From the sequence record PZ787841.1: DNA of 47,035 nt; one strand, written 5' to 3'. Each line of letters starts with the position of its first letter. Position 1 is the stretch's first letter. Of the stretch, positions 1 through 47,035 are shown in pieces. A model generated the notes under the pieces. It had not been told where the DNA came from. It worked only from the letters and a program-made list of their open reading frames with translations, and made no database searches. Both the position numbers and the translations under genes were made by a program. The DNA comes from a phage.

Positions 1-168
1 CATGGAAACCATTTCGCCCTTGGAGGTGTCTTTTACCCAACCTGACAGCCAGTATCTTCAACCCCGGCGACGTTGATGCTGCCTTTGTAGTCGGGTTGTT
101 TGCTGCCGGGAGTCTTGCGGTCGTTGGTAAACAACGCGCCACGGTTGGTGTTATCGTATTGTGTCATC
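1..168 (-). CDS. Small conserved hypothetical protein, 5' part only; the ORF runs off the window start
   Basis: ATG at 166-168 behind a GGAGA RBS; reads MTQYDNTNRGALFTNDRKTPGSKQPDYKGSINVAGVE, then continues in another frame (YWLSGWVKDTSKGE). Confidence 0.4.
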
Positions 169-201
169 TCTAAGTCTCCGGTTGTTTGCTGCCTAAAGTA
201 T

Positions 202-231
202 GTTGTACCATAGGGTTGGGGGCCGTGTCAA
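202..231 (-). promoter_or_regulatory. Weak member of the repeated promoter family (TTGACA -35 at 226-231, poor -10), inside a GTTGGGGG/CCCCCAAC hairpin
   Basis: Minus strand reads TTGACA-18-TACAAC; the downstream leader CAACCGGAGAcTTAGAGATG is shared with the copies at 40.2 kb and 42.0 kb. Confidence 0.3.
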
Positions 232-244
232 CCCCCAACTTATG

Positions 245-2103
245 TTATTTGGTTATGACGTCCTGTCGGGTGGCTTCCCACCAGTTTGCTGCCAGTCCAC
301 CGAAGTCGGTGCGAATCGGCACACGCAGACCTTGTCCTGCACCAGTCGCTTCATCTCGCGCAGGTGGCGCACGGTGATGTCGCCTTCGTCCAGCATCGAC
401 ATTCAGTATTCGTCGTGGATGTTGAGCAGGAATCGGTTGTGCGGGCACTCGCTTTCGATGTATTCGGCGATTTCAGATGTTGCGCTTGTTAAAGTCCGCT
501 GCCGTGCCCTGATACACCAGCCCTGACGCCTTGTACGTGAACATGCCGCCGGGGAATGAATCTTGCGCCCATACATGGTCTTCACATAGCCACGGGATTT
601 GGCGAGCGACCCGGCGCGTCTGGCGACCTCACGCACACCCGGCACTGCCCGGTAGTAGGTTTCCATGACTTCCAGTGCTTCGTCACCCGCCTTCTTCGAT
701 CGGCGCTCTTCGCGCTCGCCGTCAAACATGGCAGTTTCCCAGTGGTACGGCAGATTCATCTGCGACGCCAGCTCGCCGCCGCCCATGTTGAACACCATGG
801 CGAGGTTAATCTGCTTGGCGTTGGCACCACCAGCTCAGGGGCCGACCGGGGCATACCCGTCATGTCCGCCACGATTTGGTGCATGTCGAGGTCCGGGTTG
901 GCAGCATACGCATCAATCAGGCTTTTTGGATTTCGGATAATGCGCGAAGATGCGGAATTCGTGCTGGTCAAGGTCGCCGTAGGTCCACTTCTGACCGGGG
1001 TCTGGCAGGAAATCGGGCGCACCAGCGCGGCTACTTCCTTGTCACGGGAAGGTACTTGCTGCAGTGCCGGGCGGGTGTAGGACAGGCGACCTGTTCCGGT
1101 GCCCTCCGTGCCGTCTCCGTTGTCTCCCTTGGTCTGGTTGATGTTCGGGTGCACGTAGCCATTGACGGCGTTTGCGAGGATGTGCCCGCTGATGAAGGTG
1201 TCACGGGTCTTCATCAGTTTACGTGCCTTGAGAATCAGGCCCGCCGCCGGGTGTTTAATCTTCTTCAGCGCTTCTTTGCCGAGTGACGGCTGGCCCGCGT
1301 CGGTGGTGTCGATCGGCGTTCCGTCTTTGGCGTACCACTGGTCGCCCTCTTTGTACGGCGCGAACAGCTTCTCGATGGACCCCGACGGGTTCGGGTTGAC
1401 CTCGAAGCCAGCTATCTGGTTCAGCTCCTTCTGCGTCTGCTGAACTATGCGGTCAATATCCTTCGACACGCTGGTTCGCCAGTTCTTCATCGATGCGGAT
1501 ACCAACACTCTCCGACGCGATGACGTGCGGTTGCAGGCGCATTTCCAGTTTCCAGACCTCGGTCAGGTCTTGGCGGCTGATTTCCTCTTCCTGCCACTGC
1601 CACAGAGCTAGCTCGGCGTCCACACGGGCGTAGCGGCGCATCATGCTTTCCGGGGCGCGGTGGAAGTTCGGCGCTTGTGCTTTGCGGGTCGGTTTGCCGC
1701 GAAAGAGTGCTGCCAGCTCTGCGTAGATATCATCGACCTTGTTCTCGCCGAGGTATTTGCTCGCCAGTGAGTCGAGGCTGTAGCTCATTAGGTGCTCGTT
1801 GATCAATGCGGCACGAGTTTGCGTGCATTCTGCCACCTTCGGGTCGATGCGGATATCGACTGTGCGGAGCATGTGGATATCGAAGCTTATGTTGTGGTTG
1901 ACCGGGCGACGGATTTGCGGCACTTCCTCGCGCAGCCATTGAAAGGCTTTCAGGTCTTTGCGCAGGTCGTAGTATTCGCTGTATCCGTTGGGTAGGGCGA
2001 TTGACACGCCGAACGCCTTGTCACCACGTGCCCATTCCAGACCTGTCGATTCGCAGTCGATAGCCACCTGCTCATAGTTGCGAAGTCTTGGGAAAATAGC
2101 CAT
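245..2103 (-). CDS. DNA polymerase, family A (Pol I-like), with N-terminal 3'-5' exonuclease domain; at least 3 frame breaks
   Basis: Exo motif DCESTGL (ORF 1453..2103); palm-like region in ORF 756..1508; motif C LLNIHDE (ORF 403..798); Pol I-like C-terminus VPI..GGLAANWWEA (ORF 245..448). Confidence 0.85.
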
Positions 2104-2109
2104 TATTTT

Positions 2110-3580
2110 TTCTCCAGTTTTACGGGTTTCATCAGGATAGGGAGGGCGTTGTCACCGTGGACGATGTCGAGGATGTTCTTCGTGCGCGTCACTGCTACGT
2201 AAAAGGTGCGCATTTCGGCATAGATGCCTTCCTTGTTGTCCATGCTCTTGGCGGTCTTGTTCGACACGTCGTTCGATGACTACGACACGCTCGGCCTGAC
2301 GACCCTTGGACCCGTAGAATCGTGGACAGGTGGATGGTCGGCTTCCAGTCGGTCCCGTACTTGGTTTCGATGCTGCGCAGGTATGCCAGCCACGGTCCGC
2401 CCAGCTTGAGGTGGTCCCACGGCTGGCGGGCAGTTATCTTGTCCCAGCGCCTGCTTGTCCACGCGGCCTTGGCGATTTCGGTCATGTTGCGCTTCATCAC
2501 ACGCACCTCGGCGTCGGTCAGTGCCGGAATCCCTATTTCGCAGATGTTGGTACGGGCTTTCGATAAGACGCAGCGATGCTGACACCGCGCCCTGCAGGAG
2601 GCCCGGACGCCCGGAATCGGTGACGTACGGGATTTGACGCTGAATCAGGTATTCCTCTATCTCCTTGCGCATATAGTGACTGCGGTATAGCACCATCGTA
2701 TCCTCGCCATGAGTCAGCTAAGGCTGTGCGGCGCGACGTGATGCTTGATGACACCTTCTTCGTCACGCGGGCGGTATTCTTTTTTCAACACGTGACGATA
2801 CCTGACCGATGACACGTTCTGAAATACGTGGGCATAGTGTGGCACTCGATAGCTCTGTCCGAGAACGACCCTTTCGGCCCCGTACTCTCTCTCAAAGCGG
2901 TGCATACCGTCCGGGTCCGCCCCACCCCATATGTAGATGGCTTGGTCATCGTCGCCAGCGATGGTGATGTTTCCATAGTTCCCGACCAATGTCGTCAATA
3001 ACCGCCCATTGTAAAGGGGAGAGGTCTTGGGCTTCGTCGACGAACAGGAAATCAAGCCGGGGAGCAGGGATATCAAGAGCAGCGCCGAGCATATCCGAGA
3101 GGTCGATGTAGCCATATGCGTTTTTCCAGTTGTCGTAGGTTTGGGCGAAATAGATGAATCGGTCACGAGTGCCGGGCTGGTCAGTTTGTCGTAGGTGTCA
3201 CCGTAGGAAGTCTATGCGGGCGTGCGCCAGACCGTACAGGGTCAGATAGTGGTCGCCTTCGCGTAGTTCTTCCTCTTCCTCCGGGTTCTCGCCACGAATC
3301 TCGATGCCTACCTCCTTCTCGAACTCCTTCAGGTGTGACCAGCCAATCACCTGTTGCTTCGACACGCCGAGCAGTCGGTAGCAGTAGCTGCGAATGGTGG
3401 CGATGTTGGAGGAAGCCAATACCGATGCGCTGCGCCAGTTCTTTGGCTGCTGCTTTGGTGAAGGAGACTAGACCGATTCGGTCGGATTGATTCCGTCGTC
3501 GAGGAGTGCCGAGAAGCGGCGGATGACTCGGTCGATTTGCCTGTGCCGGGAGGCCCATAAATGGCAGTGTACTGGTTCAT
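2110..3580 (-). CDS. UvrD/Rep-family (SF1) DNA helicase
   Basis: Walker A GPPGTGKS at the N-terminus (MNQYTAIYGPPGTGKS); motif III AGDDDQAIYIWGGA and QSYRVP (ORF 2714..3166); C-terminal TIHGSKGLE/VAVTR-like motifs seen after frame stitching. Confidence 0.8.
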
Positions 3581-3593
3581 GTTTTAATCTCTT

Positions 3594-3625: not shown

Positions 3626-3656
3626 AGCGATACCTCAGGGTAGCTACTGAACGTTC

Positions 3657-5879: not shown

Positions 5880-7720
5880 CTATCGCAGAAGCGCCAGAAG
5901 CTCTTCGGGTGAACGGTCCATGCAGTCACGCACATATGCTGGAAGGTCTTTCTTGTCGTGGATGGCCTTGGCGATGGTGACGTCCACAGTGCCACGTGCC
6001 ATCACATCCGTGTATACTACCGAGTTGGTCGACCGATACGGTGGTTGCGGTCCTCCGACTGCATCCGGTCAACGAGGATGAAAGAGTTGGACATATAGAA
6101 CGTGCGGCTGGCCTTGTTCAGGGTGAGGCCCGTGCCCCCGGTCTGCTGGTTCGATACGAAGAACATGGCGTCACCCCTGAAGGAATTTGCGTTTCTGCTC
6201 GTCGCGCTCGTCCGGGTTCAGCCCGCCGTGGTACTGGCACACCGCATCAGCTCCGTACTTCTCGGTCAGCGCTTCCACGATGTCGGCGATTTCGGGTCGG
6301 AACTGGCCCATATAATCATCGGGTGTCCGGCGTTCTCCTCCGCGTACTCCATCAGGTACGCGATTTTCGGGTTCTTGGCGGGTTCGATGATGCGCACGAT
6401 TTCGCGGTGGCGAGTGCTATGCTCGTCGTTCGGGTCGTCCAGCTTCCAGTACGACACATATCCGGCACAAACTTGCTGCAGGGCCGTATAAGCCGCCAGC
6501 ACGTTCTCGCAGACCAGTTCCACGAAGGAATCGGTGACTGCCCAGCACGCTGGGCCAGCAGCACCGAGAGGTCGGCCTGACGCTCCTTCTTCATTTGGTC
6601 GTATATCTTCTTCTGTTCGGCGGTCAGGTCCACTTCCACGGTGGTATACATCTTCGGCGGGAGGTCTTTCAGCACGTCTTCCTTCTTGACTTGGTACACG
6701 TACGGCTTGATGATCTCCATCAGCTCTTCGATATTGGTATACCCAGTGATTTGCTTGTTCTGGAACCCGCCCTTCTCGCAGTAGCGAGCTTGGAACGACC
6801 CGAAGTCGCCCAACCCGATGATGTCCGGTGACAGGAACTGGAACTGCTGGTACAGGTCCATCGGCCCCTGCGAGATGGGCGACCCGCTCATTATTGCCTT
6901 GTATTTGGACTCGCGGCCCAATATCTCGATGTCGATAGCGCGTGATGCGTCGTGACCCTTGATTTTGTGCGACTCATCCACTGCCTGCATGCGCTGATGG
7001 CTGCGGCGGACAAACTGGGAGGTAGCCGCATACGCTTTGCCCTTCGCTTTGCCCTGACTGAGTGACTCGATGCCGACGATAAACACCTTCATCTTGTTCA
7101 TACCAAAGTCAGCATCGTTGACAGTTTGGCCTTCTTCTCAAACCCGGACATGGTGGTGTCGCAAACAAACGCCTCGTACGGCACGCCGCAATGGATAGCC
7201 AGCTCGTTCACCCAGTTGGTACGGAGCGGTACGGGGCAGTAAATGACCAGCGCGTTTACGATACGAGCGCGGAACCGGGCCGAGGACAGGGTAGATCAGG
7301 GTTTTCGATTTGCCAGTGCCCATCTCCATGAAGAACGCCACCAGCGGAGAGGACCAGCTAAAATCCAGCGCGTCACGCTGGAACGGGAACGGGTTTGTCT
7401 TGAAGTTCGTGCCACGTCGGGAACAGTTCGCGCCGGGTGATGGCGACCGAGTTCACGGCCTCGTTGCACTCCTGTATCACTTGGTCACAGATAGAGACGC
7501 CCGGCTTGCCGACGATGTTGTTCAGCAGGTGCTCGGCGTTCCGACGGATGATCGGCACTACCCAAATCGAGCGGCGTTTCTCAAAGCGGCGGTTCGGGAA
7601 GGCACATAATAAGGTTGTGTACGAGATGGACGCCTCGATATGCATACGCCCGGTGTTGTCGTTCAGACTGATTTTCATGTATGCGCCGGGGCGCTTGTTG
7701 GTATTCGTAGAGTAGAACAT
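5880..7720 (-). CDS. SNF2-family (SF2) helicase/ATPase
   Basis: Motif I GTGKS (ORF 7138..7341), DExH box DESHKIKG (ORF 6352..7101), C-terminal QSEDRNHRIGR motif VI after stitching. Confidence 0.8.
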
Positions 7721-9620: not shown

Positions 9621-9645
9621 GCTGGAAAAGGCAGTCCTCATCTTT

Positions 9646-12820: not shown

Positions 12821-15800
12821 TCAACCTTGTTCTGCACATAAGACAGGGACGGCACAAGGCCGTTGGGCCACTCTGACGTTGCCGGGCCACGTGACTTTAT
12901 TGGCCCCGGTGCCCTGCTTCAGAAAGAGAACTACTTCCTGTGCGGTGTCGAGCAGCGTCGAGGTGCCGGAAAGAACGACCGTGCACTGCGCCGAGTTCAG
13001 CGTCACGTTGAAGTGCGACGCCAGCGACAGGTTTATGGTCGCCGTAGCTGCCCCCGCCACGTCGCGCTTGCGATATAGCCCATATGCCTGCGTCGGGCCG
13101 GGGTCCGGGTCTTCCCCGGTCGCTTCCTCCAGCAGGTCTACCAGCCGTTTCCATGAAGGACCGGAGAACTCCGACCCATCAGCCAGCTGCACGGTGATGT
13201 TGCCCGGCGAGGAGAAATCTTCTGCCAGTTCAGCTTGTCGAAGATGGCGGCACGTAGCCGATAGTGCACATCATACGACATCTGGGCCGGAACCTCGAAC
13301 AGGAGCGACTGGGGCAGCACGTACCAGCCCAGACCCCCGGTCGTGGTGCCGAGGTACGGCTTGACCACGGTCAGTTCTGTATCACCGAGGACGTCCTCCA
13401 CGGTCAGGAGGTAGTTTACCCCGCCGACCGTGGCGCTGATGATGTCGCCCGCTTTACACTCGGTGGCAAAAACGGTCTGTGTACGAGTGACCGTCTTCGA
13501 TCCTGCGTTAATAAGATAGTACCTGCTGGCATCTTTGACCCCTTAAGACCATTTAGAGTTGTAGCGCGAAGTCACCATCAGTGAAATCGGGGAAATACTG
13601 GCGCGCCCGGTGTGGCTGATGAACACGCGAACCTCGATGCTATGGTTGGTGTTCCGCGCAAGGTCGACCGAGCAGGTCAGGGTCCGGGAGCTGGAACCTT
13701 CGCCACTGTGTGATGCCGTTATACCGATCGACACTCCGTTAACGAAAATCTCTACACCGCGAGAGCGCACAGTAGGTTTCCGGCGCTGTCGGTATAGCCT
13801 GATGCCGACATCGGGGCCGTCGCAGCAGGGTACGCTCCACGTCCGGGTCGGAGTCCAGCGTATAGTTGTAGTCAGTGCCCCAGTTTTCTATGGCGTTTCC
13901 GTAGTTAATCGTGACCACCTTCAGGTCGCAGAAGTTGCCACGGATGTTGCCCGCCGAGAGAGTGCCGAGGATAGTGCAGTTTTCGCGGATGATGACGTTG
14001 TTCAGGTCGCCATAGTTGGCATAGGTAGAACCGCGCACCGTCACGTTGGCGAAGTTGGCGTTCCCGTTCTTGTTGATGATCCAGACCGACGTTGGACCCG
14101 TTCCAGTTATCCGACTGGATTTGCTGGGCGATCAGTGCCGAGGTGATCAGCGCGTACTTCATTTTGGCGGTATCGATCGAGGCGTTGCGAATCATCGCGT
14201 CGTCGTAAGTGTCTGCCCGCTCGCGATAGCGAATACCAGTTTGTAGTTGCCCGGCGTGGTGCTGTTGTAGATGCCGAGCGGTCAGCCTTGAACAGCATGG
14301 TAGATTTCTAGCTGCCTGAACCGTCCGGTTCGATGGACATCGCCATACCAGCGCTGTAGTATTTGCCGCCACGGTTGATACCGAGGTTCAGGGTGTATGA
14401 CGCCTTCGCCGTACCTTCACTGGTCACGATGGAGGTCATCTTCTGCTGCACTGATGCGGTCAGGTCGTTTGCCACGCCCGGTCAGTTCATCGATGTAGCG
14501 GCCCTGCGCGATGACGTTTGCTTCAAGGTCAGCCATAGCCAGCTGGTCGTTGGCGATGGTAGTCTTGACTGTGATGATGTCAGCACGCACCTCGCCGTAG
14601 TTGCTCCATTGGTGGTCTACGTTAGCACCTGTTGAGCGGGCTTCGAGAATAGCCATAGTTCATCTCGATTGGCTTCATCAGGTTCTGGTAGGCCGTGGTG
14701 GTCTGGAACTCTGCGTCGATCATCGGGAGCAGGTCGGCGATGTCGGTGTGGCGTAGTACCTCTAAACTCGAGGAAGTCGGACGCACCGAAGGCGTCGCTG
14801 CACGGATATACCACCAATAGGTGTGGCTGTTCTTGAGGCCGGACTTGGTCCAGATGGTCCCCTGCCCTTCGTGGTTGGCACCAGCTCGACGGTCGCGGTC
14901 GCGGCGTTCGGCAGACGTGATTCCCCGGAAGTCCAGAAGTCGTAAGTCACCGACACGTTCGACAGGTCAGCGGAACGTGGCTTGATAGTGACGGCGAAGT
15001 AGCCTTGCTCATCTCGGCACCCGTCGGTTTGGACGGTGCACGGGTGGCGATGTCAACGGTGGTTTCGACCGAGCGTTGACCGCGAGCGTTGACCGCCAGC
15101 ACACCCACGGTATACTCGCCACGTGGTAGACCATTCAGTCGGCAGACCGTCCCCGGAACCTGTACCGTGTAGACAATGGACCCGGCTTTGCGCACGATGA
15201 CGTTGTTGTACACGATGTCCGACGTGTTGTTCCAGTCAGAGCACCCTGTACCACCTCGCCAATCTCCATCACTTGGTACTGCAGGTTCCACGGAGGCGTC
15301 ACTTGACGGTTACCGGAGGCACTGTCAGGTCGGGACGAAGTCGACGGTTTGCCGATTGCGTCATCCCACACGGCGACTGTTTCCTGACGCAGGGTCAGTC
15401 CGACACCGTTGACGCCGTTCAGCTCCCAGCTGGTGATGCGGAACTCTTGGTTGATGATGCCGAGGGTCTTGATGGTCGGCTTCACGTAGTAGCCCGGACG
15501 CATCGCATACCCGAAGTAGTTGGCGGTCAGCTTGATGGTGCGGCCCAACCGGGAGCGGTTGAGGGTGATTTGCGCCAGTCGCTGGGCGTGCCACTCGTCG
15601 GTCACGAAGCGGTATTTCTTGTCCTGCGTGAACTCGTTCCCGTCTTCTTCTACCCACTGCTCGATGCGCACAGGCGGGAAGTCGGCTTCGGTGTAGTCCT
15701 GCTCCTTGTCTACGAAGGTGCCGGTGACGATATTCACCTTCTGGTTATACGCGGTTTCAGGTGTGATTTCGACGTCACTGATGATCATGTCGTCGTTCAG

Positions 15801-16489
15801 CACCATCGTCGCCGGGCCATAGTATGCACCGACCAACAGGCCGTGTTTACCTGCCATATAAGTCGGTTCGCCTGCGCAAGCTTCGTGCATGTCGTCGAGG
15901 ATGGAGGAGATGGCCTCGTCCGCTTCGAACTGCCCGTTGATTGTGTAGCGCTTGGAGATGGACGAATCCGCGTTCAGCACTGGCTGGTCAGAGATGTTCG
16001 CGGCCTCGTAAACATCGGGTCGTCCACGTCTTCGGGTTCAACACCAAGCATCGGTGACAGGTAGAAGTCGCGGATAACCAGTGCAGCGTTGTCGGTCCAC
16101 TTGGTCACGCCGTCACGTGGGTCGTATACGCGTTTGCCGCGAATAGTCGCCTTGATGTTCGGGATACCGGAAGGGAACTTGTCTTGGTCGAACTTGAGCG
16201 ATACGACGATGTAGGCCAGACCCTTGCCTATCATGTCAGGTTTCCACTCGTTGCAGCGGTCGAGCAGGTACTGCGGCACAGTTGTGGTTGTTGTTGTTAG
16301 ACGCCACGTGGCGTACTCACCATACGCGTTGATGATTTCTTCGCCGAGGTAGACAGTCTCTACGGAGTCGATTTCGTGTGCCGCCAGCACGATGACCAGA
16401 TGGACCCACTCGTGGTCGTCTGCCTCTTGCTCGCCCGGCTGCTCCTGCGCAAGCTGCAGCAAGCCCGACGTGGCGACACGCCCATACAC
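12821..16489 (-). CDS. Host-specificity protein J-like central tail fibre / tip attachment protein
   Basis: J-like N-terminal region in ORF 15974..16489 (KGLAYIVVSLKFD...GKRVYDPRDG...TDNAALVIRDFYL); fibronectin-III-like segment in ORF 14947..15291; lambda-like gene order. Confidence 0.7.
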
Positions 16490-16499
16490 ATACGAGCAG

Positions 16500-16703
16500 G
16501 CTCCCGCTGCTGAACGGAGAACCTGCTTTCTTTCTGACTGGCTGCTGTAGTTTCCGATGCTGGGGACTGATGTTTTCGAGAAGGCTACCCGCTACGGTAG
16601 CCAGTGCCCCGATGACCACGGCTGCAGTCATCGAAATCACACCAACCGCACCAGCCACCGAAGCACCGACCGCGATGACTGCGGCGATAATCGCTGGTGG
16701 CAT
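16500..16703 (-). CDS. Small hydrophobic protein (lambda I-like position, or the N-terminus of the J-like protein)
   Basis: MPPAIIAAVIAVGASVAGAVGVISMTAAVVIGALATVAGSLLENISP in ORF 16317..16703. Confidence 0.3.
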
Positions 16704-20609: not shown

Positions 20610-21186
20610 CTACGCTTGAAGACATACTATTTCCTCATGATTCGGTCGAGCTTCGATTATCGCATCCACTTCATATGGCATGAGTGATATGTTCATTAGC
20701 TCGGAGTAGGATTTTATCTCGGTATAGCTGATGGGTTGACCGGAAAAGAGTGCTGCGAAAGTGTTCCAAAGGTAAAACATTTCTTTATTTAGCTTCACTT
20801 CATCAGGTGCGCCTTTGGACGACGACCCAGCGTTTCTATTTGCGCCCAGTGCTGGCGAAGAGTGGTCCCCTTTCATTCGGGGACCATTTTATTCAGCTCT
20901 GTTTCGGCTTGCGCGTACGCGTAGAGGTTGTCGAGGGCTTGGCGAAGAATGGCTGCGCCGGGAGATGAGTATCCACCGCATCAGCCAGATAAGGCGCACC
21001 AGCTATCAGCTCTTCCGCCGCTTCGAATGAGAATGGCACATCGAACGACCAGCCACGGATACACGAGGCCAGCACGTTGAACCGGGCGTCGTAGATTGCG
21101 TTCCGGCGTTGCTCGGCTGTTTCCAGTGCCGCGATGGATACGCCGCGCTGCTCCTGCTCATAGCGGGAGGCACGGATTCTTTTCAT
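20610..21186 (-). CDS. Tail assembly chaperone (G/GT-like), two-frame arrangement
   Basis: ORFs 20893..21186 and 20610..20876 in different frames between the major tail and tape measure genes. Confidence 0.45.
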
Positions 21187-21319
21187 TCAGTACCGACCAC
21201 CAACAGGTAGTCCTCGGTTGGTGTTCCGTCCGGCAGCACCAAGAACATCTTCACGGCTTCCTGCGCACGCTGGGCGGTTTTATAGTCATCAATGCTAATT
21301 TGCGGGTTGTGGTCATTGT

Positions 21320-22312: not shown

Positions 22313-22660
22313 TCACTTCTTTACCTTGTGCACGATGGACGTATGTCGGCACGACAGCAAATCATTACACAAACGATGACCTGTCGGGAATAGGTCGGCG
22401 ATTTTGTCTGCCGTCTCGCGGGCGTCTTTGGTGCCGGAGAAGAGCGGGTAGTTTAGGTTGATTTGGACGAAGCCGACCACCTCGTCGTAGCCGTACGAAG
22501 ATGCGGTCACGGCTTGAGTGCTGGCTGGCACGAACCAGAGTTCAGCCCACGGCGCATTGTCCGGGGCTTCGAACGGCTGGTTTTCGTAGGCAGTTGGCAG
22601 GTCGAACCCACCATTTATCCAGAAATAGCGCAAGGCAGTCTCTGTCTTGTCTTCTTGTCT
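22313..22660 (-). CDS. Tail terminator / tail completion-like protein
   Basis: MRQEDKTETALRYFWINGGFDL...DEVVGFVQINLNYP...ETADKIADLF at the 3' end of the composite ORF 22313..23884. Confidence 0.4.
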   Translation of the reverse strand, partial: RQEDKTETALRYFWINGGFDLPTAYENQPFEAPDNAPWAELWFVPASTQAVTASSYGYDEVVGFVQINLNYPLFSGTKDARETADKIADLFPTGHRLCNDLLSCRHTSIVHKVKK

Positions 22661-23042
22661 CATTAGGCTGACTCCAGAACGTGCTTGAACCGGGCTAGGT
22701 TGCGGCGAAGCATACCCTCCGGCGCTTTTTGCGAGTGACCGAAGTATCTCGATGACCTCGGCATACGGATAGCGGTTGACGAACCACAAATCCTCACCCA
22801 GCACGCACCGCTGCACCGCAGACGCCACCTGCTTCATGGCGATGGACCCGTTTTTATCCGGGGCCAGTCCGCCGATGCCCGGCGTGCCGATATACGCCGC
22901 CCAGCCGCCACGCAGATAGCCATCCAGCACCGGGGTGTCGAGGATGACGGAGGCCATAATCTCCATCACCGCCGCACGCCACTTGCGGCTGGCCTCTTTT
23001 TCGTGTAGCTCCTTGAAGCGTTTTAGCTGGTCGGCGTAGGTC
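22661..23042 (-). CDS. HK97 gp10-like head-tail completion protein
   Basis: MTYADQLKRFKELHEKEA...ILDTPVLDGYLRGGW (TPV.tG.LR-type motif). Confidence 0.4.
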
Positions 23043-23044
23043 AT

Positions 23045-23397
23045 CGTCTCACCTGTGCTTTGCTGAAAATTCGGGTTTCGCCGTCGAGCGCCAGCTCGTC
23101 CACGTTGACGATTGTGTAGACCTTGCCACCGAACACGGACCTTCTGGTTCTTGGTCGGCTCGACCGTCGTTCTGCCATCAGCACCTTGTCGCCCTGCTTG
23201 ATGACGGTGCCATCGATTTGATACGATTTGTATTTTTAGCACAAGCGCACGGCCCGACGCCACCACCATGTCCGGCAAAGTGCCACCAGTGACCGGGTCG
23301 GACCCGCCGGATACCAGAACCTCGATATCTCCGCCGTATTCGCGGATGGCAGCTGCTGCGGCGTCGGCTTGTGCTGCGGTGTAGTCAGGATGTGCCA
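23045..23397 (-). CDS. Head closure / head-tail joining protein
   Basis: MAHPDYTAAQADAAAAAIREYGGDIEVLVSGG... then DGTVIKQGDKVLMAE...GKVYTIVNVDE after a frame break. Confidence 0.4.
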
Positions 23398-23884: not shown

Positions 23885-24292
23885 GGGGGCGTCCTCCGCT
23901 TATTTGCCTAACTGGGCTTTCTTGATTTTTTCGTCCAGTGCACGCTGCTCGGCGGCGAGCTCTGCGATGGATGGGTTAGTGGCGTTCGGTTCAGGAACCG
24001 TTGCCGTCTTCTTATCGTCCTTTTTGGTCGTCATTAGGCTTTATCCTGCTTTGCGTCGAGGGCGGTTTGCAGACCGGTCGCCTGTGCGATGGTGTGCGTG
24101 TGAGTGCCTGCCAGTTTGGCGTTCTTCAGGTTGCCATAGACCACGATGGTTTCCTTCTCCAGCGCTGAGCGGGTTCGGGTTGGTAGCGTTCGGTACTTTA
24201 TCGGCCATTTGATACCTCGTACAAAAGAGGGGGCCAGCGCCCCCTGTTCGATATTAAGGGGGATTAGCCCTTAGTGGTGCAGAACGCCATGT

Positions 24293-25357
24293 TTACTTTC
24301 TTACGATCGTAAATGCGCTCCCAGTTGGTCGCCGACGGAGGTCAGCCCAACTTGCGTTCTTCACCGCCACGCCGTCATCGGTCGAACCGTTGCCAGTCAG
24401 TGTGGTGGCGTTGAACTTGTACCCGGTCGGGTCCAGCAGCCACGTTTTACGGGAGAACAGCGTCTCGACGCCGCCACCGTGACCGCCAGATGGGGAACGA
24501 TCGATTTCGTGCGGAACGCGCGGCGTACCGTTGCCGTAGGTCAGAGAACCTGCACCGAACAGCACGGTCAGGTAGGTACGGGTCGGGCCGCTACCGAACG
24601 TCGGCATGGAGTCATCAATGACCACACGGCAGTTCTTGTACGACAGGTACAGGAGGTTGCCTTCGGAGTCGCGGATGTACTCGATTTCGTTGTTCTTGGT
24701 GATGCGCTTCGCCACCATGGAATGCATGGCTACAACGCCCAGATTGCCGACGTGGTCGCCCATCGTAAACTGCGCGTCTACGAAGTTGTTCACGTTGAAA
24801 TCTGCTCGCCGACGTCCGCATAACCGGAGGCGTCGACCACCATGTCGCCGCCGTTCGCCGCCACGTTGTCGTTGTACAGGCCAACGACGGTAGCGATGAT
24901 GCGCTTCTGGAACTGACGTGCCCAGTAGTTGTCTACACGGTTCGCCATGCGCTGGTTCGGAGAAGAACCTGCCAGCTCGGTGACGAGGTCTGCCGCAGCC
25001 CAGCTGTTGTTCAGGAGGAACGCAATGCGTGCGGTCTGCTCAGAGTTCGTTTTGTCCGGCGTGGAGTGATCGGCTGGGTTGTCGTTCGAGTAGTTCGGCT
25101 CGTCTAGACGCGTCAAATCGATTCCAGTGCGGCAGGGTGATAGTGGAACCACCATTTGCCAGCATGCTGTTAATGAGTGGGGAAGAGCGCATCACGCCGG
25201 AATCGGCAAACGCGGTCAATTCCACGTTGTGGTTGACGGAATAGCTGGTAAACAGGTCCGGGATATATGCATCCGTCAGGGCCACTGTGCCAGCCGCGCC
25301 CGCCAACGTGGGCGCGATGTAGTCAGGAACTAAGATACCGCCTGCTGTCTTTTTCAT
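24293..25357 (-). CDS. Major capsid protein
   Basis: ATG at 25355-25357 (MKKTAGGILVPDYIAP...); ORFs 25040..25534, 24790..25155, 24293..24793; position between scaffold-like and neck genes. Confidence 0.6.
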
Positions 25358-27283: not shown

Positions 27284-28779
27284 TCATTCTTCACTTCCCG
27301 GTGGGTTGTTCGGGTCAGCGGGTGGGTCTTCCTCTTCCGGGTCAGTTCCCAAATCCAGCGGCTGGCGGTTCGTCGGAGTAGATTTCCTCCCGTGCCTCCT
27401 CGTCCTCTTGGAACGCCGTGCCGCCTTTCTTGAACGCAAAGCGCATCTCGAGAGAAGCTGATGGCACCTGCTTGCCACGCCGCGATGTAAGCGGTCATCT
27501 CTTCCGGTGACATCCGGGACAGGTCGAAGTCGGTGTTCAGTTCGAACTCGATTTCTTCGAGGTTGTCGCCCGTGTAGTCACACAGCCAGCTGAGGCACTG
27601 CAGGTACGCCGCACTCACGTTCCGGGAGATGGTCGCTAGGATGGACGTCTGCGTGGCGCGGTCGCCGCTGTATTCCTTCGCCGTACGCTGCACGTCACGG
27701 TTCTGGACGATACGCGCGCCCAGTGCCACCATCTGGTTTTCCTTGTGCTCCATAGCTAGCTACCTTGGCTTCAAGGTTCCCGCTGGTTTCGAGCAGTTTG
27801 ATATCGCCGCCTTTCGGCATTTAATCAGTTCGCGCGAACCTAGGTAGATAGGCTTGTTCCCCAGTACCTCTTACCCAAGCCATATCCAGCCCGGTGACGA
27901 TAGGGGTCGGCTGGCCGATAAAAAAGACTGAGTTCTTCGTAGTCGGCGGAGTTGATGTAGTGGCCTTGGTTAATCTCGGCGATGTCTGCCAGTGGGCTAT
28001 CGTCCACGCCGGGGTCGTTGTTGTCGGAACCCACGCGGTGACTGCCGGGATTTCGTTAACGGCTTGCCATCGGCACGTGTCGGGCGGACCCAGTCGGAAG
28101 CGACCAGTGTATCGTCTACCGTAGTCCAACGACGCGCCCAAAAGTTCGCCGTCGATCAGACGCAGTTCACGGTAGCCCTTCTCTACGTACTCTTCGAAGG
28201 TGTCGTCACCGTTGCGGTCCACGTACTCACGCAGCACGAGCAGGGTCAGGCGGCGCTTGTCCACCCACCAGCGATTCGCGCCAGTTGATGATGTCTTCAG
28301 GCGGTACGTTGGTGGTCGAAGGGGCGGATTTCGCCGCTCGACACATCGGCGGCACTTGCTGCCCCGTCCACGTTGATAGTCGGCGAACAGGCAGTGGCGA
28401 CCAAAGCCGATGACGTCTGTCGTGACTTCTTTTGCCTGCTGATCAGCCCGGTGCCAGAACCCGTGACATCCTCTTGCAAAGCGGCCCACGAGGTAGGCAG
28501 GACGACCACCGGGTCACGGCTGAACACCTGACCCAGCATACCTTTTACCGTGTTTCCGGTGATGTTGTAGAAGCGGGCACGCATCGACATAGTCTTGAAG
28601 CGCTCGTCCCCCATCTTCGTGCCACGTGTGGCGGGGTCGGGGTGCGGCGACCACTCTGCACCACCGCGTTTGACTTCCTGCGGCCCGGTGAGGCACGCAC
28701 GGATGAAGGCGTACAGCCGCTGCACCTTCCGCAGGGCTGTTTTTTCGTACTCAACAGTGGCGACGCTGACTCTTGACAT
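27284..28779 (-). CDS. Portal protein
   Basis: About 480 aa directly downstream of terL; acidic C-terminus DLGTDPEEEDPPADPNNPPGSEE; ORFs 28297..28779, 27821..28489, 27280..27753. Confidence 0.55.
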
Positions 28780-28791
28780 TGGGTTCTCCGG

Positions 28792-30259
28792 TTATCCGTG
28801 GCGGCGCAACTGGACGTCAACACCTGCCATTGAGTTATCGATTTCGTTCAACACTGCATATCGTACGTCATCGTAAACGTGGTCTTCGGCTTTGGTGTCC
28901 ACGTCATCGAACTTTTTCGGGTCGCGCGGCGGCACTGGTAGGGTCGTGCGGAAGGCATTGCATCGATGCATGGCGTAGATGCCCGGCTCTTCCTCGTTTT
29001 CCTTGACTGCTTCGAGTCGGTCGCGCACAAGCTGCAAGCCGTTGGTACGGGAACCGGGGGACTTGTTGGCCCGCTCCCAGTAGACGCCCACGTCTGACAT
29101 CTTGTCGGCGATGGTCGGCTCGTCGTCGCCCTCGTTCTGGTTGAGTATCTGTCCGTCTGCGACCCCTGAATAAGGCATTTTACCCATCCAGCCGCTTTCG
29201 TACCATTCTGTGTCTCTCTCGAGGATACCTTCTCCAACCTTGCGAGCTGCCATCTTTAGAGCCCTTGTTAGACCCTACCTTCTCGGTGCCGTACCACTCC
29301 GCGATACGGATAAGGGAACCCGCCTGCAGAAATACGACCCATCGGGCGGCTTGACCTCCTCACCGTTGGCGATGGCCCACAGCCCGTAGCTGAACGGGTG
29401 AGTGCTGCCCAGTCGAGAAGGTGCGGAAGAATTCGCCACGATTCCGGTACTTTGAAATTCGGCACCATGACCCGGTCGGTCCACACGTCATCGATAGCAC
29501 CACCCGCGACGATGTTCCAGTCACCCGTCTTCATGGCCTTGACCAGCTCAGGAGAACCGAGGCCGGACAGACGTGCTCATAGCCGGGGTCGTTTTTCAGC
29601 AGCAGATCTGGTTGTCCGCCAGCTTCGCGGGGATGTATTGGCGGAGCATACCGCCCTCGTCCTCGGCTGTGCGTGAAATGGCATAGTGTGCCTGATAGTC
29701 GACAAACGCGGCCTTAACCCAGTTGTGGACCAATGCTGCCGGGGTTCGACCCGTTCGTGATAAACGGCAGCTTCTCGCGGTACTCTGGCGGTGGCGACCA
29801 CTGACCGAGACGCACACGACCACGGAGGAAGGTATACTCGGCTTCTAGGAAGTGGGTCAGCTCGTCCATCAGCAGAATGTGGATTTCGGCACCTTGGTAC
29901 TTCATCAGGTTCTTTTTATGCTGCAGGTGGCACAGGTGGATAGTGGACCCGTTGGTAAAAGAATCTTGTTGTCTGACAGAATGCGGCACTGACCAGCTCG
30001 ACCAGCGGGTTGAGCATGACCGGGAAAGAGGAACCACCCTCCATGTGGTTCAGGTAGAGGTCGCCGTAGTTGCGGCGGAAGATGTAAATCTGGACACCGG
30101 GGCACTCCATCGCGTAAATCATAGCCAGAGCACGCATCAGGTGCGACTTCCCGCCGCCAGCTGCTCCGCCGTACAGGATTTCAGTCGCCTTGCTCGATAA
30201 AAGCGAATCCCTGTTTCGGTTGCAGGGACAGGTTGACTTCCGGTGCCATTGCTTGCATC
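28792..30259 (-). CDS. terL: Terminase large subunit
   Basis: ATG at 30257-30259 (MQAMAPEVNLSLQPKQGFAFIEQ); Walker A YGGAAGGGKS after stitching; ORF 29916..30137; nuclease-domain region in ORF 28792..29253. Confidence 0.85.
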
Positions 30260-30338
30260 TTATTCCTCTTTACACTTCGTTGTACCCGGTGGTGCGGGAA
30301 CGGGTAGCGGGTTGTATCCGTTGTGCTTTCGCAGCACA

Positions 30339-33747: not shown

Positions 33748-33962
33748 GTTCCATTGCGTTCCACCATCGTTCCACTATGCCCGGAACAACCCTCCTAAAC
33801 ACGCGCGTAAAAGGGAAACCGCGTCGGTCGCGGACTCTCTCGCCTCGGACGGCAGTTCAGCTATGTCTGTTCCATTGTTCCATCTCCGAATATTAAGTCT
33901 CATATTGTCGGCCGCCGACAGTTTCGATTCTCGCGGACGTAAGAGTGGAACAGGGGAACAGG
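33748..33962. repeat. Iteron-rich element, copy B (same architecture as 9421-9620)
   Basis: tgttccat/cgttccac repeats at 33758-33780; gttccattgttccatc at 33869-33884; palindrome TGTCGGCCGCCGACA at 33906-33920; ggaacaggggaacag at 33947-33961. Confidence 0.7.
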
Positions 33963-33989
33963 CCATCGAGCGCTGCCCATGGCGCTGCT

Positions 33990-34910
33990 ACCCCGGCCCC
34001 AATCCCCCTTTTTAATGTATTCAGCAGACCTGAGACCGTGGTTTTCAGCTGCTGCTCCCGGCGCTTGGCCACAGTGCCGCTTATCGTGTTCCCACAGGCC
34101 ACGACCATGCCCGACAGCTCCAGGACCGACAGGAATTTGTCCTTGCTCTCCATCAGTGCGACCATCAGGCTATCGACCAGCATCACATCACCATCATCCA
34201 CAGGTCGGTCGACCACTACCGCCTGCAGTGCTGCCTTAATCCCCATTCACGGTACTGGCGACTGTGAACTGCTCACGACCAGCTGCGTTTGTCTCTTGCT
34301 CCCGACATCGGTCAGGGAGAGCACGTATTCGTATTCATTTTCGTCTTCTTCACAGTCCCACCCCGTCCATCAGCTCATTAACACCGTCACCTCACGAGCG
34401 CCCATCGGCAGCTCGACCCGATACCAAGCCTTCAGTCCGGTCTTCGCAGTCGAAGCGAGTGCGTCCATTGCCACCCGGTGGTATTCGTTCACCAGAGGAA
34501 CCAGCCACGGGGTCACGCCAGCCAGAGCAGCAATCAGCTGGTTTTCCAGCATCTCGGCACTCAAATCCTGCCCAGCACCCGCAGGTCAGGACAGGCTTCG
34601 CTGCCACGGTTGCTCGAGCTTCCACCCACCAGCACCGACACATCAGCGTATTTTCTCGTATAATCGGTCCCCGCTATCGCAGTTATGGTCCGCACGCCAC
34701 CAGTGCTGCGTACAAGCTCACCACCCACCGCAACCACGTTCCCACAGTCCCGGATAAGCATCTCGGTCAGTCCACGCTCTACATCCACCCCACAACGTCT
34801 GAACGCCTCGACCGTCTTTCCCAACCTCTGTAGCCGTACCAACGACCGTCGACTCGAACCCATCAGCCCAGATGGTGGTTATCTGGAATTTCTGACCTTC
34901 GCCTTTAGTA
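33990..34910 (-). CDS. Cluster of about three small hypothetical ORFs lying between the two halves of repeat copy B
   Basis: Minus ORFs 34561..34863, 34370..34564, 33893..34246; no motif recognised. Confidence 0.3.
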
Positions 34911-40200: not shown

Positions 40201-40228
40201 TGGTGCTTTGTGCTGCTTCTGAATTTTT

Positions 40229-40300
40229 ACTATACCATAGGGTTGGGGTGTTGTCAATCCCCCAACTTATCTCTATGTAGAAGATGTGACACGCATCACA
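40229..40300 (-). promoter_or_regulatory. Consensus sigma70 promoter TTGACA-17-TATAGT (minus strand) with an upstream TGTGA-N6-TCACA palindrome
   Basis: Plus-strand actata at 40229-40234 and tgtcaa at 40252-40257; palindrome tgtgacacgcatcaca at 40285-40300. Confidence 0.55.
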
Positions 40301-43755: not shown

Positions 43756-44169
43756 TCATACCCTCGCTAACAAACCGAATAGCCATTCGCGTTTAACCTC
43801 TTCGCTGAAGGAGTGGCGGACGGCGTCCAAGTCCATCGTGGTCGGTCTTGATGGAAGGGTCCACGCCAGCGTGCCCTCGATGGCATACCATCCGACACTC
43901 CGACTTCTACAAACAGCCAGACATTGCCCGCCATCCCGTGGCGGCGAAGCCATGAACGTTGGCCCTGCGAAGTGGGTCAGGTCCAGTCGGCCCTTGTCGT
44001 CCAGCTCCCCAGCCTTCATCTCGATAAACCCGTGTTTTGTGCCATAGGTGAAGCACAGGTCAGGGAATGATGGCGCGGTGGCTGGCGACTCGATGCGGTC
44101 GTATGCCACGTTCATGTGCCGAAGGACCGGGCGAAGCTGGTCCCACATTTTCTGCTCCGGTTTACGCAT
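43756..44169 (-). CDS. VRR-NUC-type (PD-(D/E)xK) nuclease
   Basis: FPDLCFTYGTKHGFIEMKAGE in ORF 43756..44214. Confidence 0.45.
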   Translation of the reverse strand: MRKPEQKMWDQLRPVLRHMNVAYDRIESPATAPSFPDLCFTYGTKHGFIEMKAGELDDKGRLDLTHFAGPTFMASPPRDGGQCLAVCRSRSVGWYAIEGTLAWTLPSRPTTMDLDAVRHSFSEEVKREWLFGLLARV

Positions 44170-44171
44170 TT

Positions 44172-44743
44172 TCAGCACCCAAATAGTCGATGCGACCAAG
44201 GTAGTGGTCGGCACTCAGGGTCAGACAGCTCGTTCCACAGGGCCATCGCCGCCGACTTCCAGAGCGGTGATACATGGTCGAGGTACTGGATGAAACGCTG
44301 GTTCAGCCCGTGTAGCTGGTCGCGGGCGTAGCTACCTTCCCCATGCTCCATCAGCCAGTACAGCGCCTCGATGAAATCGGCGATTCGACACATACCTTGA
44401 TCGGGCCTTTGGTGTCGATTGACCGATAGTAGCCATCGCCTGCAGTCGCTTCCAGAGCTTCGAGTTTTGCCTTTGCGCCGAGGTACTGCTTGGTCGGCGT
44501 GTTGATGTCGCCAGTGAAGACTTCCGGCGCATCGTGCCACAAGGCCATGACCGCCACGCGACCCAGCTCCACGTCGGTGGCGGCTTCGCCGGGGTTCCCA
44601 CCAGTGCGGCGTAGCCACAGGTCCATCGCCAGCATAGCCACGGCCCATGAGTGTTGCGCCACGTTCTGTGGACGGGTGGTCGGCACTATCTGCCAGCGGT
44701 TTACATACTGTGCGCGCATCAGGTCGCGGGGGGTCATATTCAT
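44172..44743 (-). CDS. datZ: HD-domain phosphohydrolase, DatZ-like dATP hydrolase candidate
   Basis: HD motif QHSWAVAML...LWHDAPEVFTGD in ORF 44351..44743; small size; sits beside the PurA-homologue and MazG-like genes. Confidence 0.6.
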
Positions 44744-44854
44744 CTTGTTATACCTTCTTCGAGTTGTGTTGTGACAGATAGTGCCGTTTGCGGGCGTCCT
44801 GCGAGGAGAACCGTCTACCGCAGACTACACAGAGATATTTCTCTATCGGTATGT

Positions 44855-45660
44855 TCAGCGGCTGCTGGACCACTCCGACACTCTGGCTACCACACTGATG
44901 CCCTTATGAACCACCGGGGCGACACCTCGAGTGCGACCGCCATCAATCACATGTTGATGCGTGCCGTCTTCCAGCTTCTCCCACACCCGTTTCTCATTCA
45001 TTGCCATCTTGTTGGCTACGGCCTTGGCGATATCGATCCCGGCTAGGTGTCCGATGTCGAGCAGCAGGATAGCCACATCAGCGAATTCCCCGGCGTCGAG
45101 GTATTTGCTGGTGTCCAGCTCGGTTAATTCCTTCTTCAGCTTCAGCACTGCTTCGCCGATGGTGCGCTCGGGGAACGTGCGGTCGGCCCAGCCGGAAATC
45201 AGCTGTTGGACTTCGGCGATTGTTCCGGTTGAGTATTGGCGAGTCGCTCGCGTCTGTCCATCTTGTAGCGCTTTCTCAGGCACTGGTTGCACACGTAGTC
45301 CGACTTCGCCAGACGGCTGGGGCTGAATGTCACGTCCGACTGCAGGCACACGCGGCACACGGGCGGTCCAGCGGCGGTCATCTTGGTCTGGTCGGTTTTC
45401 GGCAATCCATCGGATAAACATAAGTCCACTTGCGGCGTGCGCGGCGTGGTGGAGGTCGGTTTCATGGTAATCGTTGCTCTTCTCTAATTCCAGTATGCGA
45501 CGCTCACTCCATCCAGAAGGCGCTCGACTGTCAGCCCGCGCCAGTTTCATTTCCCGTATTTTGCCTCACCCGTCGCCAGTACCCGCGCCACCTCCTCGGT
45601 GAAGCGCGGGTCAATCAGGCTAACGGGGCTTTGTCGGCATCGAGTTTCGATTGCTTTCAT
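44855..45660 (-). CDS. mazZ: MazG-like nucleotide pyrophosphohydrolase, MazZ candidate; an N-terminal KYG..NW region and an internal CxxC...CxxC segment may belong to it
   Basis: C-terminal GEAVLKLKKELTEL...GEFADVAILLLDIGHLAGIDI...NKMAMNEKR (ORF 44855..45550); ATG at 45658-45660; zinc-ribbon segment in ORF 45199..45465 in another frame. Confidence 0.5.
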
Positions 45661-45673
45661 CGCCCCTGCTCCT

Positions 45674-46781
45674 TATTCCTGCTCGTGTTTCATGTCGGTG
45701 AAGATGTCGTTCACGGTCGCGCCGTAGCCGTAGTATGTAGCCAGCGGCATATTGCCCGGAATCCCGGCGACCATTGCGGCACGTTCGATGGTTCCCACCA
45801 CTCAGCCACTTCGTCCGGCGTCATGTAGTTGGAGAAGTTGAGGAATACTCATCCGGGCGAATCGACTTCGAGCGCCGCCAGCGTCTGCAGGTAGCCGAAG
45901 GTGAAGATGCGGCGCGGGAGCTTGGTCACGGTGGTCAGTTCCGCTTCCATTCCGAGGTCTTTCTTCCAGTCCAGTTCCTTCTGGTCTTCGTAGTACGGGC
46001 CGGACCAATTTGCTCACCTGCTCGTTGTTGTAGCGGTTGGCTACGCGGATTGGGTAGGTGCGCATCGTGGCGATCGTGGTCTCGACGAAGGCCAGCGGCA
46101 GGTTGACGTCGACACAGACCTGTGCCGGGGTGCACTCGCGGGAGGTCGCATACGGGTAGAAGCCGTTGTTGATGCCGAGGCTGAGTCCCTGCGCACCCTC
46201 CACCGAATGCGTTCCGCGTCGTAGACTACCGACATATACTCGGCGTTGTTGGCGGTGCTGGTGGAGATGCCCGCTTCACGGATTGGCTTGCTTGTAGATG
46301 TGCTCTTCCATGTAGTCGGCGTTTCCGCCTACCGTGTTGTTGTCGTCCGGGTTGCGCGATGGATTTGGAAATCATCGCAGCACCGCAGCCTTTCTTGGTA
46401 GACCCGATTTTGGTCATCGGGCCTGCTTCCTCTTCCACGTGCTTCTGCATGATAATAGCAGCGGAGGAGTGTAGCATGATGCGTTTGCCGCGCAGCAGGT
46501 CCACACAGGACAGGATTTCGTCGCGCAGCAGTTCGACGTTCATCTGGCTACCGGGGCCAATCGGCACGGTGGTTAGCTTCGGCGATACGATGCCGTTTGC
46601 CAGCATGCAGTGGACAAGCTTGCGGCCTTCTGCATCGATGAGGTGTGGCCTGCGTTGGCACTCCACGCGGTCATCACTACGTCCGGCTGGTCGCGCGGGG
46701 CGACGTAGCCCGCAATGAGACCCTTGCCAGTGCTGCCAACTGCGCGTCAACGATGATAGTGGCTTTTTGTGTTGCTTTCAT
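45674..46781 (-). CDS. purZ: Adenylosuccinate-synthetase homologue, PurZ candidate (N6-succino-2-amino-2'-deoxyadenylate synthase)
   Basis: ATG at 46779-46781; P-loop-like GSTGKG, ANAGHT (GHNAGHT-like), LVHCMLANGIVSP, FEGAQGLSLGINNGFYPYATS (ORF 45802..46203); stop TAA at 45674-45676. Confidence 0.7.
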
Positions 46782-47035
46782 TTTATTGCTCCTGTGCATT
46801 TGCACGTTGTTTTAAGTTTAGGGTTGTACTGCGGTACTGCGTGTTCTCGGAGTGGGATGTCGTCGTCGAAGTCCATCGGCGGTTCGCTGCTCTGGTTCGA
46901 CGGGTTGTTGCCCCATCCACCTTGCTGCTGGTTCTGCTGCGGCTGCTGGTTGGCACCCAGCTGGCGCGGACCCTGTGCACGGGCCTGTGTGTTCTGGCGG
47001 GTGTTGGCACCGGGGCCGTCTTTCGGTTCTACCGA
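46778..47035 (-). CDS. ssb: Single-stranded DNA-binding protein, C-terminal part only (gene starts beyond the window end)
   Basis: Gln/Gly/Pro-rich tail ending PPMDFDDDIP, characteristic of the bacterial-type SSB C-terminal tip. Confidence 0.6.
   Translation of the reverse strand, partial: SVEPKDGPGANTRQNTQARAQGPRQLGANQQPQQNQQQGGWGNNPSNQSSEPPMDFDDDIPLREHAVPQYNPKLKTTCKCTGAIK

Follow-up and report, generated by a model that had tools for sequence, protein, structure and literature searches.

Dense frameshifts throughout a siphovirus genome record very probably reflect consensus errors in a phage likely to carry 2-aminoadenine DNA

The genes of the phage deposited as PZ787841.1 are interrupted by frameshifts along the whole length of the record. 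We conclude that these frameshifts are very probably errors in the deposited consensus and not properties of the phage. The window, i.e., the entire stretch of 47,035 nucleotides that was analysed, corresponds to a real and complete genome, about 47 kb long, of a new siphovirus whose relatives include Salmonella phage PMBT28 (MG641885), Pseudomonas phage PSA28 (MZ089737), and Klebsiella phage VLCpiS6a (ON602731). A DNA-binding-protein homologue crosses the window ends (167..1, continuing into 47035..46850) and no host flanks are present in the window (1-47035), which is therefore a circularly permuted whole genome. All recognised genes lie on the minus strand, and across the genome (1..47035) at least 203 frame-breaking indels are evenly spread; in the aligned coding DNA, they occur at about 5.4 per kb.

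The frameshift load was quantified by frameshift-aware protein-to-DNA alignment, with 51 PMBT28 proteins as queries against the window. The 203 frame changes fell within 12,579 aligned codons (37.7 kb), which corresponds to about one per 186 nt, or some 16 per 1,000 codons. Breaks were found in 45 of the 51 genes; the only six genes without one are all short, and their number is that expected by chance at such a density. Among the breaks, the one-base changes comprise 55 insertions and 112 deletions and the two-base changes 18 of each, giving a ratio of deletions to insertions of about 1.8 to 1. Besides the frame changes, 15 in-frame stops were detected. The identical pipeline returned no frame changes in 14,797 codons of PSA28 and four in 12,921 codons of VLCpiS6a. 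Among sequences from IMG/VR, the pieces L002 and L008 had none in 7,457 codons, and the distant control L003 had two in 2,311 codons, so that the density across the five control sequences ranged from 0 to 0.9 per 1,000 codons. The original prediction, made from the letters of the sequence, of frameshifts every few hundred bases throughout the genome is thus confirmed.

The positions of the breaks do not depend on which reference proteins are used. When PSA28 proteins were used as queries, 200 of 208 break sites were no more than 18 nt away from a site found with PMBT28, and the same was true for 170 of 182 sites obtained with VLCpiS6a proteins. A homology-free check on the coding strand gave a longest open frame of 528 codons in the window, compared with 779 to 1,080 in the relatives, and open frames of at least 150 codons covered 55% of the genome as against 82 to 91%. 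The ORF landscape of the window is close to that of PMBT28 carrying simulated random indels at one per 100 to 150 nt. The distribution of breaks over 2-kb bins is Poisson-like (chi-square 24.6, 23 df, p 0.37), and their density is uniform whatever the function of the gene, with essential genes such as those for the capsid, portal, large terminase, and DNA polymerase also broken.

The split of recognisable genes into two to five ORFs each, as originally described, holds in that the genes are indeed split, but it understates the load of the large ones, which reaches 16 breaks. This maximum is found in the tail fibre or host-specificity protein J homologue (13546..16703, minus strand), which also has an in-frame TAG at 14310 within the conserved motif DGSGS[Y]KST. 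On the same strand, there are 13 breaks in the portal gene ('62 kDa structural protein', 27287..28779), 13 in the gene of a UvrD-type helicase (2106..3580), 10 in that of the large terminase, TerL (28801..30267), and 7 in that of a superfamily II helicase (5883..7717); further large genes are those for tail fibres (14 breaks) and the tape measure protein (12 breaks). The major capsid protein gene (24267..25357, minus strand) has three, near 25105 (+1), 24801 (-1), and 24334 (-1). The longest ORF in the window (22313..23884, minus strand, 523 aa) is a chimera across four separate head-tail connector genes, which it spans because their stop codons have been shifted out of frame. Plus-strand ORFs at 33945..34833 were rejected as genes, their translations being low-complexity, antisense-type sequence; the minus-strand ORFs in the same region had no PHROG match.

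After frame correction, the window proteins are 72% identical overall to those of PMBT28, in agreement with the earlier statement that the products stay recognisable. Differences to PMBT28 amount to 0.22, 0.17, and 0.48 per site at codon positions 1, 2, and 3, respectively. This pattern, with little excess divergence at positions 1 and 2, is that of a functional, more divergent relative. Some in-frame stops lie within otherwise invariant motifs, e.g., TAC to TAG in ALEAS[Y]KKQIA as well as in the protein J homologue motif; therefore, substitution errors are also present. The rate of frame-breaking indels in the consensus is about 0.6%, and substitution errors, gauged from the stop-codon count alone, probably occur at a similar order.

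The sequence context of the indels is distinctive. Deletions in runs of 1, 2, 3, 4, and at least 5 bases account for 58%, 35%, 4%, 2%, and 1% of the total, the same as in uniform simulations; 42% fall in runs of at least two bases (32 to 42% in the simulations) and only 7% in runs of at least three. Insertions lengthened an adjacent run in 23% of cases, compared with 32 to 42% in simulations, i.e., more rarely than at random, and the homopolymer run-length spectrum of the window equals that of its relatives. Clustering of indels at homopolymers, proposed earlier as a check, was thus looked for and not found. Homopolymer-driven errors of the 454, Ion Torrent, or typical residual nanopore kind were rejected, given the absence of any concentration in runs of at least three bases, and the run-length data rule out both slippage-type mutation and classic homopolymer errors.

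A modest A/T bias, of about 2.5 to 4.5 SD depending on the test, was observed instead. A/T content near break sites is 0.035 above background, compared with -0.034 to 0.000 in 10 uniform simulations, and A or T makes up 65% of the bases inferred to have been lost, the corresponding share being 47 to 59% in simulations, which correct for the A/T bias of the deleted-base inference itself. Three 4-mers are enriched at break sites (TGAG, z 5.7; AGAT, z 4.9; TCGA, z 4.4), whereas in simulations the values for these 4-mers do not exceed 3.0. No single motif underlies the errors, TCGA being only about 2-fold enriched near the sites, and Dcm (CCWGG) sites were rejected as a source, as the window contains only 11 of them and shows no enrichment. 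No excess of A-to-G or T-to-C differences was found, and miscalling of 2-aminoadenine (Z) as G was rejected on this ground.

The genome encodes a gene set for Z. The gene for DpoZ, the aminoadenine-incorporating family A DNA polymerase (248..2103, minus strand), is frame-broken at seven places (near 1464, 1013, 936, 836, 558, 475, and 336), and a TGA stands in frame at 405. Once frame-corrected, the product reaches 869 bits with the NCBIfam model NF038380 (cut-off 500) and forms a single 620-aa alignment with 81 to 84% identity to four relatives. It is separated from the gene of PurZ, the succino-amino-deoxyadenylate synthase originally noted as a PurA homologue (45682..46781, minus strand; seven breaks and an in-frame TGA at 45851), only by the DNA-binding protein gene spanning the window junction. 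Frame-corrected PurZ scores 359 bits against NF038379 (NCBIfam, cut-off 300). Also on the minus strand are genes for a MazZ-like dATP/dGTP diphosphohydrolase (44751..45660; two breaks and an in-frame TGA at 45549), with scores above the Pfam gathering thresholds for PF18909 (57.6 bits) and PF04447 (29.8 bits), and for a DatZ-like HD-domain dATPase homologue (44165..44746; three breaks), which passes the Pfam cut-offs for PF12917 (68.8 bits) and PF13023 (42.8 bits). The assignment of the latter is based on 73% identity to, and synteny with, a PMBT28 'hydrolase', the libraries used containing no DatZ-specific model. Since PurZ, DpoZ, and the MazZ-like and DatZ-like enzymes are all encoded, it is likely, judging by gene content, that 2-aminoadenine replaces adenine in the DNA of this phage.

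Searches for a clean copy of the genome returned relatives only. Megablast against phage records found no near-identical genome (best identity about 76%), and peptide-seeded searches of IMG/VR, JGI metagenomes, and GTDB genomes found no near-identical copy (best 80% amino-acid identity). Exact searches gave no match for a 41-mer in IMG/VR, for a 34-mer in genome contigs, or for ten window ORF products. The N-terminus of DpoZ retrieved only 46 to 49% matches from a large protein database, although relatives at 76% exist in GenBank.

The uniform density of the breaks, the conservation of the corrected proteins, the lack of a slippage signature, and the absence of host flanks all support the initial reading of indel-type sequence errors over pseudogenisation. 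Frameshifts and some in-frame stops in nearly all genes might also be expected of a defective or cryptic phage that gathers frameshift mutations, but we regard such genuine decay as very unlikely: the genome is whole, circularly permuted, of normal length, and fully syntenic, no large deletions or rearrangements relative to its relatives were seen, and the indels show neither the homopolymer nor the slippage bias that natural ones have. Natural gene decay is dominated by substitutions, but here the stop codons imply about as many substitutions as there are indels. A degraded prophage or pseudogenised element was rejected likewise, as there is neither host DNA nor homopolymer bias and divergence is still dominated by third positions. 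It is similarly improbable that indels were simulated onto a clean genome. The density of breaks and the ORF landscape are indistinguishable from those of uniform simulations, but the A/T enrichment, the specific 4-mers, the excess of deletions, and the avoidance of neighbouring runs by insertions all differ from them, and a clean parent sequence was not found in any of the collections searched. Biological decoding, by programmed ribosomal frameshifting, transcriptional slippage, or an unusual code, has a negligible probability. A classical siphovirus -1 frameshift may account for one site at most, located in the tail-assembly chaperone region (20630..21317), but the roughly 200 sites have no common slippery motif, their +1/+2 and -1/-2 shifts follow each other in random order, and close relatives have a single frame for each of these proteins.

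If the frameshifts are consensus errors, their source would be noisy long reads that had not been polished with accurate reads or with reads of amplified DNA; these would most likely, we infer, be nanopore reads from native DNA. Base modifications missing from the training of a base-caller cause systematic consensus errors (PMC6591954), and a base-caller untrained on 2-aminoadenine would make errors of this kind that depth does not average out. The Z base, which may have worsened the read errors, would then be the likeliest cause of both the error density and the absence of a homopolymer link, and such a causal role is plausible. Nanopore accuracy on dZ-DNA is reported to be 'markedly reduced across A/T/C/G bases', with PacBio CCS only marginally affected (PMC13128860), and Z-DNA read by nanopore has fewer k-mers in common with the sequence as designed (PMC13369860). 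We give close to an even chance to the possibility that the dense, A/T-leaning frameshifts without homopolymer bias directly reflect native nanopore sequencing of a genome in which 2-aminoadenine has fully replaced adenine. Generic long-read consensus errors that arise from low coverage or missing polishing and are unrelated to base modification, in which case other contigs of the run should be equally affected, are a substantial possibility as well, somewhat below even. Ordinary DNA could look similar in a long-read consensus of low coverage, given the uniform, Poisson-like spacing of the breaks, the occurrence of both indels and substitutions, the modest size of the context effects, and the lack of a Z-to-G type substitution signature. 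However, when the DNA is canonical, residual errors are found mainly at modified motifs and at homopolymers of at least three bases (PMC6591954), and runs of that length hold only about 7% of the window deletions; the A/T and 4-mer enrichments exceed those of uniform simulations; and the genome encodes a full Z pathway. The link to 2-aminoadenine, flagged as speculation in the original prediction, is thus partly supported by the encoded Z genes, the A/T-richer break sites, and the published drop in accuracy, but it cannot be proven from the sequence itself.

As artefacts, the broken genes have no importance as biology. Gene callers applied to this record will yield false fragments and chimeras in their hundreds, the 523-aa ORF being one example, and the record needs to be polished or flagged ahead of annotation, taxonomy, or protein-family work. 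If the Z base did cause the errors, an error pattern of this type would be a cheap warning of non-canonical DNA in native long-read data, and frameshift-riddled, PurZ-positive contigs beside clean contigs of the same run could mark dZ-DNA phages in silico in long-read metagenomes.

We compared the window with PMBT28, PSA28, VLCpiS6a, and a second Klebsiella phage, vB_Kpn_K21lambda1 (OY978848). All share genome size (46.9 to 48.4 kb), gene order, the location of genes on one strand, and the block encoding DpoZ, the DNA-binding protein, PurZ, MazZ, and DatZ. Nucleotide identity of the window to these relatives is about 75% across alignable parts, and its third-position difference to PMBT28 (0.48, compared with 0.32 to 0.40 among the relatives) makes it more divergent from them than they are from one another. 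It contains 55 GATC sites as against 2 to 18 in the relatives, half their count of GGCC sites, and about one-eighth of their GAGCC/GGCTC sites; the restriction environment of its host probably differs from that of the PMBT28 group. Reading frames are intact in the relatives and broken in the window. The phage is thus a new and distinct member of a known group, viewed through a noisy consensus, and a genuine new relative, at the species level or higher, within the PMBT28 group of Z-genome siphoviruses.

Acinetobacter phage SH-Ab 15497, a siphovirus with experimentally established dZ-DNA, also encodes DpoZ (62% identical to that of the window) and PurZ. The two phages fall into different genus-level groups; the deposited genome of SH-Ab 15497 is free of such frame breaks, and Z in the window is predicted from its genes. 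Reduced nanopore accuracy on its native DNA, as attributed to Zhou et al. 2021 in PMC13128860, provides a precedent for poor base-calling on Z-DNA. The systematic nanopore errors that Wick, Judd & Holt (2019, PMC6591954) described at modified motifs, Dcm CCWGG among them, belong to the same class of mechanism, with consensus errors surviving at 0.4 to 0.7%. In that case, the errors were confined to one short motif, with the rest in homopolymers. In contrast, those in the window extend over nearly all contexts, with a mild A/T and 4-mer preference, a pattern that modification of every A:T pair would be expected to produce.

Every recognisable gene of the window (47,035 bp; G+C 57.5%) lies on the minus strand. 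Megablast returned only four related phage records, those of Salmonella phage PMBT28, Pseudomonas phage PSA28 and Klebsiella phages VLCpiS6a and vB_Kpn_K21lambda1, each ~74–76% identical to the window over the alignable parts, and the gene order is that of PMBT28 throughout. Because the homologue of a PMBT28 DNA-binding protein crosses the window ends (167..1, continuing into 47035..46850), the window is a circularly permuted complete genome without host flanks. No cleaner copy of it was found in phage records, IMG/VR, JGI metagenomes, GTDB genomes or the protein collection, and ARAGORN detected no tRNA or tmRNA genes in the whole window.

In tblastn searches with 68 PMBT28 proteins, almost all window homologues were broken into HSPs of differing frames. 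Breaks were counted using a custom frameshift-aware protein-to-DNA aligner (semi-global, BLOSUM62, codon gap penalty 7, frameshift penalty 14). For 51 PMBT28 proteins, 203 frame changes were found over 12,579 aligned codons (+1, 55; −1, 112; +2, 18; −2, 18), together with 15 in-frame stops. The identical pipeline gave 0 frame changes in 14,797 codons for PSA28, 4 in 12,921 for VLCpiS6a, 0 in 7,457 for a relative represented by two IMG/VR pieces and 2 in 2,311 for a distant IMG/VR relative. The genome-wide frameshifts of the original prediction are thus borne out, and are denser than it had stated. Break positions depended little on the query, as 200 of 208 sites obtained with PSA28 proteins and 170 of 182 obtained with VLCpiS6a proteins fell within 18 nt of PMBT28-derived sites. 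A homology-free check agreed: the longest open frame on the coding strand is 528 codons in the window versus 779 to 1,080 in relatives, and open frames of at least 150 codons cover 55% of the genome versus 82 to 91%, a landscape matching that of PMBT28 once random indels are simulated into it (1 per 100 to 150 nt). Since one simulation put the recovery of expected indels within aligned regions at ~91%, the true frame-breaking indel rate is about 0.6%.

The breaks are spread evenly, their counts per 2-kb bin being compatible with one constant rate (chi-square 24.6, 23 df, p 0.37). The genes for capsid, portal, terminase, polymerase, PurZ and the two helicases all carry breaks; only six genes, all short, are break-free, the number expected by chance. 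Few PMBT28 homologues map to 33–42 kb, a variable block of small early genes, and frameshift density there is similar wherever such homologues exist. The longest window ORF (523 aa; 22313..23884, minus strand) is a chimera: with their stop codons moved into other frames, four separate head-tail connector genes are read through as one, and annotation would mistake the product for a single large protein.

Beneath the breaks, the frame-corrected proteins are 72% identical overall to those of PMBT28, and the corrected polymerase aligns to the four relatives as one 620-residue piece with 81 to 84% identity. Differences from PMBT28 per site at codon positions 1, 2 and 3 are 0.22, 0.17 and 0.48, the corresponding values being 0.10, 0.07 and 0.32 for PSA28 and 0.15, 0.11 and 0.40 for VLCpiS6a. 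Such a pattern points to a functional, somewhat more divergent relative and not to neutral decay.

The character of the indels was analyzed for 141 events with clean neighbourhoods, taking the single-base correction that best restored the conserved protein, and the same procedure was applied to relatives bearing simulated uniform indels. Deletions in runs of 1, 2, 3, 4 and at least 5 bases (58%, 35%, 4%, 2% and 1%) were indistinguishable from the uniform simulations, insertions lengthened an adjacent run in 23% of cases versus 32 to 42%, and the window as a whole has the same homopolymer spectrum as its relatives. The indels are therefore neither of the homopolymer type, ruling out the homopolymer clustering proposed as one check, nor slippage-like. 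A-rich contexts, the other proposed check, showed a modest lean: A/T content near all 203 sites is 0.035 over the coding background (−0.034 to 0.000 in ten simulations). A or T accounts for 65% of the deleted bases (47 to 59% in simulations) and for 73% of the unambiguous ones (43 to 65%), and the 4-mers TGAG, AGAT and TCGA are enriched near breaks (z 5.7, 4.9 and 4.4; at most 3.0 for these 4-mers in simulations). The error process is thus mildly context-dependent, unlike uniform noise. The record also holds substitution errors, as several in-frame stops lie within invariant motifs far from any frame change: TAC to TAG at 25807 (ALEAS[Y]KKQIA) and 14310 (DGSGS[Y]KST), and TGA at 405 (IHDEY[S]MSM of the polymerase). 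The in-frame stops at 45549 and 45851 also fall within otherwise invariant motifs. From the stop count, we roughly estimate several substitution errors per thousand bases.

These data support sequence errors, as originally predicted, over real biology. Genuine gene decay would also fragment frames, but natural indels are slippage-biased and those of the window are not; natural decay consists mostly of substitutions, whereas in the window indels and the substitutions deduced from stops occur at about equal frequency. Moreover, divergence shaped by selection, with little excess at codon positions 1 and 2, and a full-length, syntenic, unintegrated genome argue against decay. Nor can ~200 mixed plus and minus shifts without a common motif be programmed recoding, and the same proteins occupy single frames in relatives.

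Motif content sets the window apart from three relatives (L001, L006 and L007): it has 55 GATC sites (2, 3 and 18, respectively, in the relatives), 11 CCWGG (0, 2 and 5), 10 CTCGAG (0), 205 GGCC (381 to 451) and 14 GAGCC/GGCTC (96 to 121). These differences far exceed what ~500 errors would create or destroy, and suggest that the host differs in its restriction-modification landscape. A ~190-nt intergenic stretch between the end of the tail-fibre gene and the replication module (9553–9743) recurs ~24 to 25 kb away at 33902–33936 and 34953–35051 with 80 to 97% identity, possibly as a regulatory region present twice or as an insertion. About 960 nt split the second copy, and GC skew in this segment is the most negative of the whole window; its ORFs had no PHROG match, and those on the plus strand look like antisense artefacts. 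Another shared sequence, ...TACCATAGGGTTGGGG, occurs at intergenic sites 187–221 and 40214–40248 and is a possible promoter or terminator element in two copies.

A contribution of 2-aminoadenine (Z) to the errors had been proposed as speculation. By profile matches, the window encodes the complete set of genes that Z-genome phages are known to carry: PurZ, once frame-corrected, reaches 359 bits against NF038379 (cut-off 300), the polymerase reaches 869 bits against NF038380 (DpoZ; cut-off 500), and adjoining genes match MazZ-type diphosphohydrolase (PF18909, PF04447) and HD-domain dNTPase (PF12917, PF13023) domains. Given the established functions of these families, adenine is likely replaced by Z in the phage DNA. 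In the large protein collection, the best matches of the DpoZ N-terminus are only 46 to 49% identical, though relatives at 76% exist in GenBank; the PMBT28-like family seems absent from, or out of reach in, that index.

An unpolished long-read consensus built at low coverage, from whatever DNA, is a serious rival source of the errors, and the window differences show no A-to-G or T-to-C excess, which would be expected if Z were called as G. We consider a Z contribution, within the artefact explanation, about evenly balanced: the proposed link is plausible and partly supported by the gene set, the A/T lean and published nanopore results. When Z-DNA is read by nanopore, fewer k-mers agree with the designed sequence (PMC13369860), and modifications missing from base-caller training cause systematic errors that survive consensus, whereas leftover errors in canonical DNA fall mostly in homopolymers of at least 3 bases (PMC6591954). 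The window pattern, deletion-biased and A/T-leaning over all contexts without homopolymer bias, is better matched by Z-DNA read natively on a nanopore than by the usual residual nanopore error. The phage beneath these errors adds a new member to the PMBT28-like Z-genome siphoviruses.
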